Notes: generated by a model not told the origin, from the sequence alone. A stretch of 60,110 nucleotides of DNA from Promethearchaeota archaeon (GCA_019057865.1 JAHLWP010000025.1:1-60110), one strand, 5' to 3'. Shown: positions 46,877 through 54,994, counted from the stretch's first letter. Numbers and translations are program-made.

Positions 46877-48208
46877 TCAATTTTCTTCTATTTTCTCAGC
46901 CATATGAGGAGTTAAAAACCTAATTGCTATAAAATAAAGAGGAATTACTGATAATTCTACGAAAATAGATATAATAAATGGTGCTCTAGGTCCTATATGA
47001 TCCCATACTAATCCTCCTAAAATGGGGCCTATTAACGCTCCAAATAAACTCATCCACTGAGTTAATCCAAAAATTTTACCTCGGTGACTTTTTGAAACAC
47101 GGCTAACAAAATTTTGTAAAATTAACATTCCTGCCCAAGCAAATGTCGCATCAAAAGTTAAAATAACGCCAAATTCCCATCCTGAGGTTGTATTGACAAT
47201 TAACCAAGTAACCAATGATCCAAAACTACTTGCAATAGCAATTCCTAACATTGGATTTATTTTATCAGAAATCTTACCTAATTTAGGTGCTAGAAGCATA
47301 GCTATAATTTGACTCGGGAAATATATCAACATAACCATAGTAGCATTATTCACCCCTATCTCATCTATTAAATACACTTGAAAGAATGGGGGAGCTAATG
47401 ACTGATTTACATTGCTAGTCATAAATGCAATGGTTAAAAAAATAAATCCTATTAAAAAACCAAAAGCTATATTATTACCTGTTTGAGAGTTAGAAGAAGA
47501 AACATCAATAGTTTGGGATTCTATAAAAAATTCTGCTGAAGGGGGATATATATTAGTAATATAATGGTCATATGTAAGTTCCTCATTTACATGACGATTA
47601 AAAATAATTCCTGCGTATACATTAGAAATGGTAAATAAGATTAAAGGGCTATAAACCAAAAACCTATTATTTGGGACAAAAAAATTAGCAATGCTAAATA
47701 TTATAAAGCTAAGGATGGATCCAAAAAAATTGCCCCAGCCCATCATTCCCCCTCGTTTACCAAAAGCATACGATCGATTTGTTTTATGGGATTTTTCGGA
47801 TATTAATGCATCTAAAGGAGTCCAAAAGAATCCAACGAAAAATCCTTGAACAAACAGACCAATTGCAAATATCATTAAAGAGGAAAACATGATTCCTAAA
47901 TACATTAAAAGATAACAAGTTCCACGACCAAAACTTCCAATTAGAACCAGCAACTTCTTAGAGAATCGATCAGTTAAATATCCAACGATTGGTGCACTAA
48001 TTAACGCACCAAAGATTTGACTGGCATACATAAAACCTAATTGTGTACCTGAAGCTCCTAAGAGTTGCGCTGTTACATAAGGAATCAGAAAAGAAAAAAA
48101 GAAAAAGCCCATACTATTCCAAAAAATAATTCGAATCATAGGCACGAAATCTGGCGTTATCTTATAAGAAGTAGAATTTGAAGCTAATTTTTTTTTGGAT
48201 AAATTCAT
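46877..48208 (-). CDS. MFS transporter
   Basis: About 12 TM helices; GYLTDRFSKK and GKISDK motif A; RGKIFG. Confidence 0.9.
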   Translation of the reverse strand: MNLSKKKLASNSTSYKITPDFVPMIRIIFWNSMGFFFFSFLIPYVTAQLLGASGTQLGFMYASQIFGALISAPIVGYLTDRFSKKLLVLIGSFGRGTCYLLMYLGIMFSSLMIFAIGLFVQGFFVGFFWTPLDALISEKSHKTNRSYAFGKRGGMMGWGNFFGSILSFIIFSIANFFVPNNRFLVYSPLILFTISNVYAGIIFNRHVNEELTYDHYITNIYPPSAEFFIESQTIDVSSSNSQTGNNIAFGFLIGFIFLTIAFMTSNVNQSLAPPFFQVYLIDEIGVNNATMVMLIYFPSQIIAMLLAPKLGKISDKINPMLGIAIASSFGSLVTWLIVNTTSGWEFGVILTFDATFAWAGMLILQNFVSRVSKSHRGKIFGLTQWMSLFGALIGPILGGLVWDHIGPRAPFIISIFVELSVIPLYFIAIRFLTPHMAEKIEEN

Positions 48209-48361
48209 CTTAGTAGAGGAGAATATATCATTATGAGCCTTGCTTAATTATTATTAAGAAAAATATTCTAAGTCCTATAAACTTTGATTTTGTTGAAATT
48301 ATCAATAATGGAATAGTTTTTAAAGATAAATATATAGATAATATAAAAAGGCATTTAAAAT

Positions 48362-49552
48362 TTGATAAATCAAATGGCTGTCAATGGAGATAATGCATAT
48401 CGAATAACCGAACGTCTCGCTTTTCCTCGGCTAATAGGTTCAGAGGGAGAAAAAAAAGCAAATGAAGTTGTTTTAGATGAGTTTCGAAAAGCTGGCTATG
48501 AATCAATTCATCGTGAAAAATTTAAAACTTCTTTTTATAATTGGATAGCAATCCGATTATTATTTTTACCAATTGGACTCTTTTTAGTTCTTTTAGCCAT
48601 CTCTTTTTATATAAATCCGTGGATTACTTTAATTTTATTTATTATAAATGTTTTCGTAGCATCCAGAGTTCTTGGTATGGCAACTACTTCAGAAATAAAG
48701 CTTATGAGGAATGAAGAGAAAAATTATGAAACTGAAAATATTTATGTTAAATTAAAAAATGGTGATTCTAAAGGCACAATTGTTTTTATGGCTCATTGGG
48801 ATTCAAAATCTCAATTATTTTCTTCGTCAATGAGGATTATTATTATAATTATTGCTGCGTTAGGAGCGATTATCATTCTATTATTATATTTAATTTTAAG
48901 TATAATTCAAATTTTTTTACCTTACCAAATACCAATATTAAATCATATTTTGTTAGGTATTAGTATTACTGTTTCAATTATAGGAATCCTTAACTTTTTT
49001 AATAAAACTGGCAATGATTCTCCTGGAGCTTATGATAACGCAGCAGGTGTAGGAGTTGTCATTGAACTCGCCAGATATTTTAAAAATAATTCACTGAATA
49101 ATTTAGATTTTATCTTTTTAAGCACTAGTTCTGAAGAGTTGAATTTAGGGGGAGTAAAGAGTTTCTTGCACCATCATAAGGATAAATATGATAAAGAATC
49201 AACATATTTTATTAATTTTGATTTAATAGGAGGTACAGATTTTATAAGAATAATAACCTCATTTGGAATACCACGAAAAGTCTCTTCAAAAAAATTAAAT
49301 GAATTATTTCTTAATAGTGCCAAAGAATTAAATATTAAAGCTAAGGATATTTATTTGCCTACAGGCGCTTGGTCTGATTATATGCCTGTTGTTCAAGAAG
49401 GGTTTGAAGCATGTTGGATAGCTTCTCAGCCTGGTTTAAAATTAGTGCATACTAAAAAAGATGATATGAGCATAGTTTCTAAAGATAGCATAAAAAATAC
49501 TCTAAATCTATGTGTAGAAGTCGTTAAGAAGTTAAATAATGAATTTTCTTAA
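48362..49552 (+). CDS. membrane-anchored M28 family metallopeptidase
   Basis: AHWDS, GAYDNAAG, SEE, NFD, SDY, HT..D; two inserted TM hairpins. Confidence 0.85.
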   Translation: MINQMAVNGDNAYRITERLAFPRLIGSEGEKKANEVVLDEFRKAGYESIHREKFKTSFYNWIAIRLLFLPIGLFLVLLAISFYINPWITLILFIINVFVASRVLGMATTSEIKLMRNEEKNYETENIYVKLKNGDSKGTIVFMAHWDSKSQLFSSSMRIIIIIIAALGAIIILLLYLILSIIQIFLPYQIPILNHILLGISITVSIIGILNFFNKTGNDSPGAYDNAAGVGVVIELARYFKNNSLNNLDFIFLSTSSEELNLGGVKSFLHHHKDKYDKESTYFINFDLIGGTDFIRIITSFGIPRKVSSKKLNELFLNSAKELNIKAKDIYLPTGAWSDYMPVVQEGFEACWIASQPGLKLVHTKKDDMSIVSKDSIKNTLNLCVEVVKKLNNEFS

Positions 49553-49699: not shown

Positions 49700-50689
49700 A
49701 TGTTAACTCCAGAACAGATTAAAGAAGAATTAAAAGAACATGTGATCAATCTCAGGTTTCATGCACGCGGAGGACAGGGAGGTGTAACGGCCTCTAATCT
49801 ATGTGTTGAAGCTTTTTATGGATATGGTGTTTGTCAACCTTTATTTGGAGCCGAAAGAATGGGATCTCCAACTGAAAGTTATGTACGTTTAAGTGCAAAT
49901 AATGATTTAGTAAGAAGCAATGAGCAAGTTTATGCTCCACATGCAGTCGCAATATTAGATCCATCTCTTCTTGGTGAAATAGATGTTACCGCTGGATTGG
50001 CTCCCGGTGGATGGCTTATAGTAAATACAGTCATGGATCAAAAGACAATTCAAGATATTGTTGGTCGAAAAGATATAAATATCGCAACCATTGATGCATT
50101 AAATATTGCAATGGAAATTTTTGGCAGAAATATAACTAATACAATAATTTTAGGAGCGTTTATTCGTGTGGCTCCAATTTTCTCTATGGATGCTTTAGCT
50201 GATGCGATAATGCGTCGTTTTAAAGGTGAAATCGCTGGTAAAAATGTAGCAGCTATAAAAAAAGCTTATGAAGAAACTTGTATATATGAGACTCCAAATG
50301 CTCCTGCAATTGATTTTACTAAAGATACAAAAGTTCCTTGGCAACAAGTTTTTCCAGGATTACCGGGGTATAAAGAACTAGATAAAGCTGGTGTATGGTA
50401 TTGTGATGAAGATGTAATAGAGATAGGTAGTAAGCAAGTAATTACAGGCTCATGGGGTGAATGGGATATGATTTGGGATGAAGAAAAATGCACTGATTGC
50501 GCTCAATGTTGGTATATCTGTCCTGATTTTGCTATTATCAGAGAAAAAGGTGAGGATGGTTTATGGCATATGAAAGGCATTGACCAATCTCATTGTAAGT
50601 CGTGTCAAAATTGTTTAGAAATCTGTCCTGTTGAAGCTATTAGTAAAAGATTAAAACAAGGACCGGCAGCGTGTGCCGCTCCGGAATAG
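49700..50689 (+). CDS. porC: 2-oxoacid:ferredoxin oxidoreductase gamma-delta fusion
   Basis: RFHARGGQG, FGAERMGSP, NTIILGA (gamma); CTDCAQCWYICP and CKSCQNCLEICP 2x[4Fe-4S] (delta). Confidence 0.92.
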   Translation: MLTPEQIKEELKEHVINLRFHARGGQGGVTASNLCVEAFYGYGVCQPLFGAERMGSPTESYVRLSANNDLVRSNEQVYAPHAVAILDPSLLGEIDVTAGLAPGGWLIVNTVMDQKTIQDIVGRKDINIATIDALNIAMEIFGRNITNTIILGAFIRVAPIFSMDALADAIMRRFKGEIAGKNVAAIKKAYEETCIYETPNAPAIDFTKDTKVPWQQVFPGLPGYKELDKAGVWYCDEDVIEIGSKQVITGSWGEWDMIWDEEKCTDCAQCWYICPDFAIIREKGEDGLWHMKGIDQSHCKSCQNCLEICPVEAISKRLKQGPAACAAPE

Positions 50690-50703: not shown

Positions 50704-51930
50704 ATGTCAATAGAACCAATGAGAATATTTTTTAAGGAAATAAAAGAACCTATAGAAACCACGATGATTGGAAATTATGCAGTTGCAGGGGGAGTTACTC
50801 AAACTGATCCAGATGTTATATGTGCTTTTCCAATCACCCCCCAGACCCAATCAGTTGAGGGTTTATCCGATGTTGTTCATCACGGAAGATTAAAAGCTGC
50901 ATTTGTAAATGTAGAATCAGAATTAGCTGCGATGAGTTTTTCAACCGCTGCTTGTGCAGCAGGAGCAAGAGCTTTTACAGCTACAGCAAGTCAAGGTTAT
51001 TTATTGATGACAGAAGCTCTTCCTATGGCTGTAGGGTGGAGATTACCTTTAACGATGATGCTTTCTGCTCGGGCTTTTAATTCACCGAATTTATCTATTT
51101 GGAATTCTTGGGAATATACTCAAACGAATTCTGAACTTGGTTGGAATATAATTGTATCTGAAAATGTTCAAGAGACCTATGATGCTGCAATCCTTTCTGT
51201 AATGATCTCAGAAGATTCATTATTTCCAACTATATTTGTACATGATGGCTTTATAATATCTCATTCAGTACAGAATCTAACACTAATTCCAGATGAAAGA
51301 GTCAGAAGAATGACGCCTAAAAAGCCAAGACATACAATTGATCCTTCAAAACCCGGTACCTGGGGTGGTATTGTTACTCCTTCTTATTTTATGGAAGGGA
51401 GAGCACAGTTGGAAGATGCAAAACAACTAGTCTTAGGTCAAATGGTTGATGTCTTCAAAAAGTTCAAAGCAGAAACGGGAAGAGATTATAATCTGATTGA
51501 AACTTTTAATTTAGATAACTCATCAAAAACTGCTTTTTGTACAATGGGCTCTGTATGTGGTAATATTATTAGTTGGATGACAAAAAACAAGGATATTGGT
51601 TTAATTAAAATAAGAGCATTTCGACCATTTCCATATGAGGAATTACGAAAAATTGTAGAAGAACATAATATAGAAAAGTTAATTCTTTTAGAAAAAAGCG
51701 ACTCGTTAAATGGGATGTTACCACCATTTTCAATGTCTGTTACCTCTGCACTATATCCACTAGGTACATTGTTTAGAAGTTTCATAGTTGGTTTGGGTGG
51801 ACGTGATGTTACGAGAGATGAGTTTGGTGTAGCGAAAAAGAAAATGGAAGCTGTTACAGACATGAAGGGACAACTATATCAATATCTAGGGGTTAGAGAA
51901 ACTAAAGAAAAAATATATGGGGTGGATTAA
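50704..51930 (+). CDS. porA: 2-oxoacid:ferredoxin oxidoreductase alpha subunit
   Basis: GNYAVA, FPITPQT, VESE, TATASQG, HDGF..SH, RAFRPFP, GLGGRD; ATG at 50704 after GAGGTGA. Confidence 0.93.
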   Translation: MSIEPMRIFFKEIKEPIETTMIGNYAVAGGVTQTDPDVICAFPITPQTQSVEGLSDVVHHGRLKAAFVNVESELAAMSFSTAACAAGARAFTATASQGYLLMTEALPMAVGWRLPLTMMLSARAFNSPNLSIWNSWEYTQTNSELGWNIIVSENVQETYDAAILSVMISEDSLFPTIFVHDGFIISHSVQNLTLIPDERVRRMTPKKPRHTIDPSKPGTWGGIVTPSYFMEGRAQLEDAKQLVLGQMVDVFKKFKAETGRDYNLIETFNLDNSSKTAFCTMGSVCGNIISWMTKNKDIGLIKIRAFRPFPYEELRKIVEEHNIEKLILLEKSDSLNGMLPPFSMSVTSALYPLGTLFRSFIVGLGGRDVTRDEFGVAKKKMEAVTDMKGQLYQYLGVRETKEKIYGVD

Positions 51931-51934
51931 TAAA

Positions 51935-53023
51935 ATGTCAAAACCAGAGAGGAATATAATTAATTTTGAGGATATTTTGGCCAGAAATGAGAAATCTAAT
52001 GTTCTATTCTTCAACTATGATAACGAAGCTTTTATGAATACTGGAATTCAAGAAAGTGGAGGTACACCACCCTACGCTTCCACTACGACTGGTCCTGCAG
52101 GAGAAAAAATACCCGGCAAAATAGGTGTTAAGCAAGATTTAGTAACCCCATTTGCTTTCTATGGTACAATAAAACTTTTCTTAGCTACTGTAAATCCAGC
52201 ATATCCTAATGATTTTATGGGAAAAATAGCAGATGCTCTTAAATCAAATGGATCAGCTTTCATTCAAGCTTATTCAGATTGTATGAGGGGATGGAGACAT
52301 GGTGCTTCTGATGCTTTAAAAATCTCAAAACTGGCAACTGATTGTGGATATTGGCCGCTTTATACAGTGAGAGTAGAAGATGGTGTCCCTATATTTACTT
52401 ATTATCGAGGATTAGATATTGATAAAGAGAAATTTGTAGAGTATCTTAAATCGATGGGCAAATTTAGACATCTTTTTAAACCTAAATTTATGGAAAAAGA
52501 GATTGATGAGATTATCTATTTAACAGAACAACGGAATAAAAAATTAAAAGGTCTTATTGAGAAGTTTGGAGCAGAGAAGCCTGTTGATGTTTATAGATTA
52601 AATAGGAAGAAATTACAGCCTCAAACTCATCTACAACCTGGTCATGGTTTATGTCCTGGTTGTGGTGCTGGAATGGTATTAAATCAAATGGCAACAGCTG
52701 CGACTGCGGTTGCTAATACTAACATAATTTATGTGAATAACACTAGTTGTTCAGAGGTCTCAACTTCAAAAGATAACGTGACCTCATGGAATGTTCCTTG
52801 GGTTCACCACTTATTTGAATCTGGTGCTACTGTTGCTGAAGCTATCTCAACTGCGAAAAAGATTATGAAAGCTAAAGGATTATATAATCATGAAATTCCT
52901 TGGGTTATTCATATCGCAGGTGATGGATCGACATATGATATTGGTTTTCAATTTCTTAAAGCCGCACTAATAAGAACAAGTAGTTTTGTGGAAATGAATG
53001 AATATTTAAGAGATCAGAAATAA
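51935..53023 (+). CDS. porB: 2-oxoacid:ferredoxin oxidoreductase beta subunit, circularly permuted
   Basis: YDNEAFMNTGIQ near the N-terminus; PGHGLCPGCG starts at nt 52637; GDGSTYDIG near the C-terminus; ATG at 51935 after GGGGTGG. Confidence 0.92.
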   Translation: MSKPERNIINFEDILARNEKSNVLFFNYDNEAFMNTGIQESGGTPPYASTTTGPAGEKIPGKIGVKQDLVTPFAFYGTIKLFLATVNPAYPNDFMGKIADALKSNGSAFIQAYSDCMRGWRHGASDALKISKLATDCGYWPLYTVRVEDGVPIFTYYRGLDIDKEKFVEYLKSMGKFRHLFKPKFMEKEIDEIIYLTEQRNKKLKGLIEKFGAEKPVDVYRLNRKKLQPQTHLQPGHGLCPGCGAGMVLNQMATAATAVANTNIIYVNNTSCSEVSTSKDNVTSWNVPWVHHLFESGATVAEAISTAKKIMKAKGLYNHEIPWVIHIAGDGSTYDIGFQFLKAALIRTSSFVEMNEYLRDQK

Positions 53024-53118
53024 ATACTAATTTCTTCAAATCTTATTTTAAGTTTTTTTTTTAATTTGGATTTCCAGTTTATTATTTGAAGATAATAATA
53101 TCAAAAAGAAATACGTAT

Positions 53119-53637
53119 CTAGGATTCAAATTCATCAATTTCTTTTAGAATCTTTGAAAACATCGTAGTAGATATTTTAAATGTAGTGTTTTCTATGAGG
53201 AATTGGAGAAAATATTTGCATTCTTTTTTCATTATTAGCCTTTGATGTAATGCTTTAAGAATAATGCCTAATGTACCAGTGATCTTAAGTTCAAGTGTTC
53301 GTGCTATCTCTCGAGCTGTCAAATCATCAATGATAATGATTTTTTCTTCGGCTTTTTCTTGCATCTCTTTCCCAAGAGCGATAATCGACGCCTCTCCGGA
53401 GTGTATTTGTAAATCTTCCAGTCTTTTTATGAGTTGTTTGTAACTAGGGTTTTTAACAGTTAACCAATCAGAGAAGCATTCTTCTAAAATCAGAAATTCA
53501 GGGACCTTTTCATCTCCTAATACTTCCTTCTTTACTATTGTCGTGGTATAGCACCGTGAAAAAAGTTTAGGAAGTAATGTAATTGCTCCTATTTTCCCCA
53601 AATAGATTATTGGAGAGGCATTTATTATGGCAATCAT
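53119..53637 (-). CDS. PIN-domain protein (DUF3368-like, VapC-type toxin)
   Basis: INASPII, VKKEV, IHSGEASII, IIDD..AR..A, GTLGII. Confidence 0.88.
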   Translation of the reverse strand: MIAIINASPIIYLGKIGAITLLPKLFSRCYTTTIVKKEVLGDEKVPEFLILEECFSDWLTVKNPSYKQLIKRLEDLQIHSGEASIIALGKEMQEKAEEKIIIIDDLTAREIARTLELKITGTLGIILKALHQRLIMKKECKYFLQFLIENTTFKISTTMFSKILKEIDEFES

Positions 53638-53645
53638 GATGTAAT

Positions 53646-53945
53646 TTAACCCAAGGCAAATTCGAGATCTTCCTTAAGAGCTTGTTCATCATATCCTGAA
53701 GGATAACGGTTCTTCAGTTCATGTAGCATTTTTCTTAGCGAGACTCCAGCTATTTCTGCTGCTTTCCATGCACTAATATTTTTTTCACTAACTTCCTTGC
53801 AAAGAATTTCTAACATCTCCTCAGAAAGCGACTTCTCCAATAATTGACGAATATACGTGGATTTGTCCATTACTTTTAATTTCTTAAGTAAAAAACTCAG
53901 TTTTCGTTCTAAATCATCGTCAATTCTTACTGAAAGAATTTTCAT
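53646..53945 (-). CDS. UPF0175-family antitoxin (RHH plus HTH)
   Basis: ILSVRIDD, STYIRQLL, ISAWKAAEIAGVSL, LKEDL. Confidence 0.85.
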   Translation of the reverse strand: MKILSVRIDDDLERKLSFLLKKLKVMDKSTYIRQLLEKSLSEEMLEILCKEVSEKNISAWKAAEIAGVSLRKMLHELKNRYPSGYDEQALKEDLEFALG

Positions 53946-54083
53946 TATACCTATGTATACTAGAACATTCCTTGTATATATACTTTTTCAATTACCTACA
54001 ACGAAAATCAATTATTTTTAAGTATTATCTTTTTATAAAAGAATGATATTAAAAATCAAGAATTGTTTGATAATTTGAAATAT

Positions 54084-54185
54084 AATGGATCAACTTACGA
54101 TATAGGATTTCAATTTCTCAAAGCAGCATTAATTAGAACAAACACGATGGTTGATATGAATATTTATTAAAAAAACCAGAAATAA
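54084..54185 (+). repeat. diverged, colinear duplicate of the last 102 nt of porB (52922..53023)
   Basis: Translates NGSTYDIGFQFLKAALIRTNTMVDMNIY*KNQK* versus DGSTYDIGFQFLKAALIRTSSFVEMNEYLRDQK*; hand count 77/102 nt identical, no gaps. Confidence 0.9.
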
Positions 54186-54227
54186 TTTTTTCTAAATTAT
54201 TTATTTCTTTTATTCTTATCTTCTTTT

Positions 54228-54994
54228 ATGCCAGTAAATATTGAAATAAAGTATCCTGTTTATACAGTTATTATTGATAATCCTAAAGTAAAAAATGCAG
54301 TGGATGGTCCTACAGCAAAGGAACTAGCAGCTTCATTTCGAGATTTTGAGCAAGATGAAAACGCTGAAGTAGCTGTTTTATGGTGGTTCATGGAACATTT
54401 TGTTCAGGAGCTAATTTAAAAGCGATTACTGAGGGCTATGGAAATAGAATCGAGAAAGATGGTGATGGTCCAATGGGACCTACAAGGATGAGATTATCAA
54501 AACCAGTAATTGCCGCAATAGCCGGATATGCTGTTGCTGGTGGTCTTGAATTAGCATTATGGTGTGATTTACGCGTTGTTGAGAAGAGTGCTATATTTGG
54601 TGTATTTAATCGCAGATTTGGTGTTCCTTTAATTGATGGTGGAACAGTACGTTTACCTAGACTTATTGGATTAAGCAGAGCTATGGATATAATTCTTACA
54701 GGATGCCCAATAACAGCCAAAGAGGCATATTCATGGGGTCTCGCCAATCGTATTGTTGAGAATGGACAATCACGACAAGAAGCAGAAAAGTTAGCAAGAG
54801 AAATAGCTGCTTTTCCAAAAGCATGTATGAGAAATGATCGTTTATCTACTTATGAACAGTTTGGTTTAAGTATAGAAGATGCTATAGTTAAAGAATTTGA
54901 ATATGGATTAAAAACTATAGAGAGCGGTGAATATTTAAAAGGAAGTATTGCTTTCAAAGAAGGTAAAGGAAAACATGGTTCTTTTAATGATTAG
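54228..54994 (+). pseudogene. enoyl-CoA hydratase/isomerase (crotonase) split by a -1 frameshift near 54380-54387
   Basis: N-part (P.VKNAVDG, VAVL) and C-part (GTFCSGA.L, KPVIAAIAGYAVAGGLELA..CD) are in different frames. Confidence 0.8.

Follow-up and report, generated by a model that had tools for sequence, protein, structure and literature searches.

Enzymes that depend on ThDP are defined by a contiguous motif, GDG-x(24-27)-N. The order of their PYR and PP domains differs between transketolase, pyruvate decarboxylase and the 2-oxoacid:ferredoxin oxidoreductases (OFORs), and split subunits are known, such as those of split transketolase and sulfopyruvate decarboxylase. The ThDP site tolerates indeed being assembled from separately encoded or re-ordered pieces. 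These known rearrangements concern entire PYR and PP domains, which are moved or split, whereas the OFOR beta subunit described here is cut inside the PP domain, within the ThDP/Mg signature itself. It is encoded in a stretch of 60,110 nt from a Promethearchaeota archaeon (GCA_019057865.1, JAHLWP010000025.1:1-60110), hereafter called the window.

The closest described protein, by both sequence and structure, is PorB of Methanosarcina acetivorans (9bt4 chain C; NCBIfam NF008819; 1.1e-46, Foldseek rank 1, Z 9.7). Both proteins share the two halves of the ThDP motif, the four cluster cysteines and alpha, gamma and delta partners, gamma and delta being fused in the window, in contrast to the four-subunit PFOR of M. 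acetivorans. Compared with this PorB, the beta subunit of the window has canonical residues 118–291 first and 7–123 last, with about 18 N-terminal residues and a C-terminal tail of 10–15 residues added. The second-best match is the beta subunit of the oxalate oxidoreductase from Moorella thermoacetica (5c4i/5exd/5exe chain C; NF045792; 1.4e-41, Z 9.6–9.7), which has the canonical chain order and a profile scoring slightly under that of PorB. This enzyme also has a fused gamma-delta-like subunit, the corresponding model (NF045790) matching the gamma-delta protein of the window; the profile and structure comparisons of the permuted beta gave no indication of oxalate specificity. The same PP-domain fold is found in domain VI of the homodimeric PFORs (Desulfovibrio africanus 1b0p, Moorella thermoacetica 6cin; TIGR02176; Z 11.0–11.7), where all domains follow each other in canonical order in one chain of 1,170–1,230 residues, with an unbroken GDG...N motif. 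The alignment to residues 974–1099 of 1b0p starts at residue 18 (368-aa form), inside the new leader of the permuted beta. Within its own genome, the canonical paralogs belong to the same family and are co-linear with the PorB/VorB profiles (358–394 bits), and are only 32–35% identical to the permuted protein.

The beta gene lies in an uninterrupted plus-strand ORF (51917..53023) encoding 368 aa. Its true start is likely the ATG at 51935, as had been assumed in the initial annotation, since this codon sits 4 nt past the porA stop, homologs are 359–363 residues long, and many relatives carry a stop codon inside the six upstream codons. Residue numbers given below follow the 362-aa form starting at this ATG, unless the 368-aa form (start 51917) is indicated. 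The genes and the parts of the beta gene are listed in the table. The first protein of the operon contains a Pfam POR domain (PF01558, 1.4e-26, residues 24–191) followed by two Fer4 clusters at 257–319, and matches both PorC_KorC and PorD_KorD of NCBIfam, with a gamma score of 160 against an equivalog cutoff of 225; its gene is kept upstream of alpha in relatives. The alpha protein matches POR_N (2.8e-53) and PFOR_II (2.2e-12) and reaches 298 bits with PorA_Arch, under the 550-bit cutoff; alpha proteins of relatives start aligning at the Met of its proposed start codon.

Genes of the operon and parts of the permuted beta gene (positions in the window)
Feature	Position	Strand	Basis
Fused gamma-delta subunit (PorC-PorD) of OFOR	49700..50689	+	Pfam POR + two Fer4
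Alpha subunit (PorA-type; PYR domain + domain II), likely start ATG 50704	50704..51930	+	Pfam, NCBIfam
Circularly permuted beta subunit, 362 aa + stop	51935..53023	+	Profile/HMM/structure matches
New N-terminal leader, residues 1–18	51935..51988	+	No canonical counterpart in HMM alignment
Former C-terminal half, residues 19–207 = canonical 118–291	51989..52555	+	HMM domain 1, 9bt4_C alignment
Junction from old C-terminus to old N-terminus, residues 208–225	52556..52609	+	Unmatched between the two HMM domains
Former N-terminal half, residues 226–352 = canonical 7–123	52610..52990	+	HMM domain 2, 9bt4_C alignment
New C-terminal tail, residues 353–362, extending the post-GDG helix	52991..53020	+	AF2 helix 336–354

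When the two halves of the protein were scanned apart against NF008819, residues 25–200 matched profile positions 117–286 (2.2e-35) and residues 230–358 matched positions 5–122 (8.2e-24; both ranges in the 368-aa form). The solved M. acetivorans chain behaves likewise, residues 28–199 aligning with 118–282 and residues 232–353 with 3–115 (368-aa form), and the solved oxalate oxidoreductase beta aligns in the same two-piece swapped pattern. With an HMM built here from 40 canonical beta subunits, profile positions 118–291 fall on residues 19–207 (1.6e-43) and positions 7–123 on residues 226–352 (1.3e-32). Judged from these alignments, the swapped homology is far beyond chance, and the claim of the initial annotation that the two halves occupy swapped PorB coordinates is borne out by all three comparisons with PorB-type references. 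No full-length co-linear alignment to canonical PorB was found: the beta subunit obtains 202 bits with NF008819, in two swapped stretches, against a cutoff of 405 bits, and the permutation accounts for part of this shortfall. The Pfam model TPP_enzyme_C (PF02775) is passed (25.7 bits, cutoff 21.9), the match being limited to positions 68–150 of 151 (residues 22–117, 368-aa form); the first half of the domain model sits at the other end of the protein and goes unreported. KEGG and COG assignments do recognise the family (K00170, COG1013).

The unmatched junction of 18 residues compares with about 12 unmatched canonical end positions in the canonical-beta HMM; the old termini are thus joined almost directly. 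The break lies after the helix following GDG and before the strand carrying DN, which places GDG (329–331, nt 52919–52927) near the C-terminus, with 31 residues remaining after it, and D29-N30 near the N-terminus. A break inside the ThDP/Mg motif had been proposed, and it falls indeed between the GDG and DN halves: GDG and YDNEAFMNTGIQ (residues 28–39) are about 300 residues apart in the permuted chain, versus about 27 canonically. Read from the N-terminus, the motifs are YDNEAFMNTGIQ, C116 (in SDCMRGW), WPLY, GKFRHL, then PGHGLCPGCG, which begins at residue 235 (nt 52637), C272 in NTSCSE and finally GDG. The former C-terminal half thus holds the strand with D29-N30, the MNTGIQ loop, the cluster ligand C116, WPLY and GKFRHL, and the former N-terminal half holds the ligands C240, C243 and C272, the WxVPWxH segment, GDG and the helix that follows it. 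The four proximal [4Fe-4S] cysteines (C240, C243, C272 and C116) align with the canonical cysteines, whose pattern is CxxC, a further C and the C of an xCxxGW segment.

Across 87 aligned homologs, which are 50–96% identical to the beta subunit of the window, YDNEAFMNTGIQ, GDG, C116, C240, C243 and C272 are invariant down to 50% identity, as is the W/H segment after C272. Retention of the motifs and cluster cysteines, another point of the initial annotation, therefore extends from this one protein to both motif halves and four cysteines in all 87. Selection was estimated as dN/dS over 23 phylogenetically independent pairs with unsaturated dS. The whole gene gives 0.063 and the two core halves 0.04–0.05, with 0.13 for the new N-terminal leader (residues 1–21), 0.13 for the linker (194–231) and 0.075 for the C-terminal tail (348–362). 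The new terminal extensions are thus under purifying selection, and both leader and tail show class-wide conserved patterns, that of the tail being [FWY]-x-[VI]-[ML]-N. Whether they might pack against each other or regulate cofactor loading, as proposed in the initial annotation, is a matter of speculation. The junction and surrounding linker form the least conserved part of the protein, with a mean column identity of 0.47 over residues 208–225 and their surroundings.

Structure prediction with the 87-sequence alignment (AF2 monomer) gave one compact domain with a pTM of 0.87 and a mean pLDDT of 80. In this model, the core strands flanking the break are 23–30, with DN, and 323–328, before GDG; a long helix (187–211) followed by a strand (212–221) runs across the junction, with pLDDT 86–93 over residues 191–230, and the C-terminal helix spans 336–354. 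The leader is predicted to form a short strand (6–10) and a helix (11–15). Low pLDDT in this apo monomer is confined to loops expected to bind ThDP, the cluster or the partners (34–49, 238–242 and 275–280). All 24 Foldseek matches at E<=1e-3 are OFORs (PFOR/OOR beta domains; TMq 0.3–0.4), and VIA-align separates the PFOR/OOR set (Z 9.6–11.7, about 175 residues aligned) from everything else (Z<=4.8). Both programs align sequentially, a full-length superposition of a permutant being beyond either, so each structural match covers about half of the model. The predicted fold is that of the PP domain in solved PFOR and OOR beta subunits. A complex model of alpha with the permuted beta reached an ipSAE of 0.83, versus 0.00 for the best of three controls, the mark applied being one reached by 58 of 80 solved complexes and by 2 of 110 mismatched pairs; at least 97% of contacts are shared between runs, with partner pLDDT of at least 86. 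Since OFOR complexes have been solved, part of this score may come from structures known to the predictor. The predicted alpha interface involves beta residues 262–358, with the C-terminal helix and residues 355 and 357–358 of the tail among them.

The permuted protein is far from isolated. More than 100 protein clusters (90% identity level) of about 360 residues, 54–90% identical to the query and covering 96–98% of it, come from NCBI, JGI, ENA and Logan assemblies. The idea that the swapped order might mark a clade holds for one class: the order occurs in at least 130 species-level genomes, or 130 of the 400 searched in this phylum, with 128 of the 160 genomes of families f1–f7, which form the class of the window, versus a single match among the 239 genomes elsewhere. 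That sole outside match, a fragment with 90% identity, sits on a short contig (G075:C23:1999-2799) and is probably mis-binned. A full Asgard operon with 85% identity is also found under the label ‘Candidatus Nanopelagicaceae bacterium’ (DATKTW010000155.1), seemingly by mis-binning too. Orthologs occur in four closed genomes: Promethearchaeum syntrophicum MK-D1 (DSAG12_00808; 4.32 Mb), Ca. Lokiarchaeum ossiferum (NEF87_002873; 6.04 Mb), Ca. Harpocratesius repetitus (4.36 Mb) and chromosome CP070831, the first two being single-contig genomes of cultured strains. NCBI names the ortholog ‘hypothetical protein’ in all four. In an exhaustive HMMER search of 1.84 billion representative proteins, matches co-linear with the permuted query consisted of one full-length representative (P0122) and otherwise fragments only; past the permuted set the scores fall from 414 to 194 bits, and all further matches are in canonical order.

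A tree was built from 40 canonical sequences and 24 permuted ones re-ordered in silico. It unites the permuted ones in a single clade (SH-aLRT 100), whose stem measures 1.39 substitutions per site and which is distant from the canonical paralogs of the same genome. PorB is the type with which the nearest canonical relatives score best. The long stem could reflect a change of function. The permutation would have a single origin, close to or at the root of the Loki-type Asgard class, the permuted beta having then persisted as one of three POR/VOR-type paralogs. Footprints of duplication and deletion were sought in the leader and tail, by comparison with the canonical post-GDG helix/strand or N-terminal leader, and none was significant (ungapped profile-profile scores against column shuffles and control segments, z <= 2.2); the six profile positions matched by both new termini (118–123) would be the only hint of such an origin. 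Split beta subunits were also considered as evolutionary intermediates and found no support from the representatives of 184–241 residues that start at the break point, the three that were checked being at a contig edge or on contigs of 1.1–3.6 kb beside unrelated fragments.

The initial annotation had described an intact porC(D)-porA-porB operon, and this gamma-delta/alpha/beta order is conserved in relatives, being kept at 14 of the 16 loci that were sampled, with beta identities as low as 49%. One exception among them is a closed genome (G279) whose permuted beta (C1:1502548-1503600) lies about 543 kb from the alpha ortholog (2045958-2047169; 62% identity). The genome of the window and the four closed genomes of the class each carry two canonical POR/VOR-type beta genes besides the permuted one; in the former, they are located at G000:C31:15445-16320 and G000:C75:48797-49675. 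The possibility that the permuted enzyme is the sole POR-type OFOR was thus rejected, two canonical paralogs being present in every genome checked, and given these paralogs the permuted enzyme need not be the pyruvate-specific one. In MK-D1, DSAG12_00808, 00809 and 00810 are listed under ‘2-oxoacid/pyruvate degradation’ as PFOR beta, alpha and delta/gamma, with EC 1.2.7.1 (PMC7015854, Supplementary Table 4), and are transcribed at 286, 372 and 314 RPKM, respectively (PMC7015854, Supplementary Table 3); the text of that paper is silent on the permutation. The MK-D1 ortholog is therefore transcribed and already treated as the PFOR of the organism, its pyruvate substrate being assigned by annotation only. 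Upstream of the operon, the window encodes an MFS transporter (minus strand) and a membrane-anchored M28 family peptidase (46877–49552), which may fit an amino-acid/peptide-catabolic neighbourhood.

A degenerate second copy of the last 34 codons of the beta gene, in which a Leu codon TTA has become TAA, lies at 54084–54185. About 1 kb separates it from the porB stop (region 53024–54230), and this interval contains a minus-strand gene pair encoding a UPF0175 protein (30.1 bits, above cutoff) and a DUF3368/PIN-like protein (22.5 bits, below cutoff). The remnant and the next 45 nt are closest to the gene end and downstream spacer found in another sublineage (L045, L075 and L052; 85–88%), and the functional 3' end of the beta gene best matches another relative, L007 (93%). 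The same UPF0175/PIN-like pair, with about 91% DNA identity, is found in L054, 3 kb downstream of its own porB. The enoyl-CoA hydratase gene further downstream (54228–54994) carries a 1-nt frameshift near 54375 that divides it into frame A (54228–54416), corresponding to positions 4–46 of the ECH_1 profile, and frame B (54380–54991), corresponding to positions 51–243. Its orthologs are intact in L008, L016 and L033, and the split gene of the window is either a pseudogene or the result of a sequencing error. In many relatives (L008, L014, L016, L019, L021–L025, L033 and L045), only about 75 nt separate the permuted porB from the start of the hydratase gene, and 1.8–3 kb of extra DNA is present at the same place in others (L009–L012, L015, L018, L030, L034 and L037), which makes the 3' flank of the beta gene a recurrent insertion site.

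Taken as a whole, the data are best explained if the ORF encodes a functional PorB-type beta subunit of a POR-type OFOR, a natural circular permutant that arose once and was kept in the class, a reading to which we give a probability of roughly 0.88. In a POR-type 2-oxoacid:ferredoxin oxidoreductase encoded by three genes, the protein would supply the ThDP-binding PP domain and the proximal [4Fe-4S] cluster. Its old C- and N-termini would be joined by a short helix-strand junction, and the new termini would sit in the loop between the post-GDG helix and the DN strand. By analogy with the canonical fold, they would meet at the Mg-ThDP site, which would combine D330, 33 residues from the C-terminus, with N30, 30 residues from the N-terminus, where canonical enzymes use an uninterrupted GDG-x(~27)-N segment. 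In other respects the fold of the domain, the ligands of the cluster and the interface with alpha would be preserved, so the enzyme should catalyse a CoA-dependent oxidative decarboxylation with ferredoxin as acceptor. The substrate would be pyruvate or a closely related 2-oxoacid.

Several other explanations have to be weighed. The window comes from an 87-contig draft genome, where a chimeric join or a collapsed tandem porB pair could in principle have produced such a gene. This chance is practically negligible: the same junction, length and order recur in the more than 100 clusters from four assembly sources and in the 130 species-level genomes, the single-contig genomes of P. syntrophicum MK-D1 and L. 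ossiferum included, and the junction codons are under purifying selection. Misassembly, which the initial annotation had named as a possible refutation, is contradicted by this recurrence in more than 100 independent assemblies. It is also very hard to believe that the ORF yields two separate polypeptides, by synthesis or by later processing, and so a split-beta OFOR. The poor conservation of the junction and linker and the library proteins of about 190 residues starting at the break point would suit such a split, but the latter lie at contig edges or on contigs of 1–3.6 kb with unrelated neighbours and do not belong to this clade. Moreover, the frame is uninterrupted in all homologs, the linker evolves under purifying selection (dN/dS 0.13), and it is predicted as an ordered helix and strand with the high pLDDT noted above.

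A non-catalytic role is another alternative, in which the permuted protein would be a structural or regulatory pseudoenzyme, leaving 2-oxoacid oxidation to the canonical paralogs. The two canonical beta genes found alongside it in every genome checked, the long stem branch and the fact that all subunits stay below their NCBIfam equivalog cutoffs (beta 202/405, alpha 298/550, gamma 160/225) point that way. The residues expected for catalysis and cofactor binding (GDG, DN, the MNTGIQ loop and the four Cys) are nevertheless invariant over the class, the Asn of MNTGIQ aligning with the conserved SNTGGQ segment of homodimeric PFOR. With core halves at a dN/dS of 0.04–0.05, with its own alpha and gamma-delta partners kept in the operon, and with an ortholog transcribed at the level of other catabolic genes (PMC7015854), a pseudoenzyme looks quite improbable. 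A bolder view accepts the functional permutant and adds that the permutation is not neutral, altering ThDP loading, retention or gating, which would make the enzyme a mechanistically distinct PFOR as well as a class-level marker. Both chain ends would then lie at the Mg-ThDP site, with the C-terminal helix and tail in the alpha interface, and possible effects would include reversible ThDP exchange, assembly control or an altered oxygen sensitivity. We consider this extension unlikely, though clearly less so than the three preceding alternatives, and retain the functional, once-arisen permutant as the preferred reading.

The initial annotation knew of no description of this arrangement, and the literature search agrees with it, no paper having been found on a circular permutation with its break within the PP domain, be it of an OFOR or of another ThDP enzyme. 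Searches of main texts for Asgard OFORs and for the ortholog locus tags found no account of the swap, a November 2026 review of PFOR diversity mentions neither the permutation nor Asgard archaea, and none of the curated NCBIfam models calls the permuted beta above cutoff. The protein is a real circular permutant of the PorB type, both conserved and expressed, and represents a known kind of enzyme with a new chain order. The defining ThDP motif has been cut in two, yet it is kept under strong selection across an archaeal class, a natural case of a PP domain accommodating newly placed chain ends at its cofactor. Thanks to the cultured strains and closed genomes, it is a convenient system in which to examine circular permutation and the assembly of a cofactor site within a complex Fe-S/ThDP enzyme.

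The finding also bears on how these archaea are described. Oxidation of 2-oxoacids is the central energy-yielding step in Asgard archaea (PMC7015854). As the swap defeats the NCBI family models, the subunit is named ‘hypothetical protein’ and the operon seems to be without a beta subunit, an omission that can distort metabolic reconstructions of these organisms. The permutation may serve as a clean synapomorphy for the class, and if it proved not to be neutral, it would mark the lineage that serves as a model for the archaeal host in eukaryogenesis.
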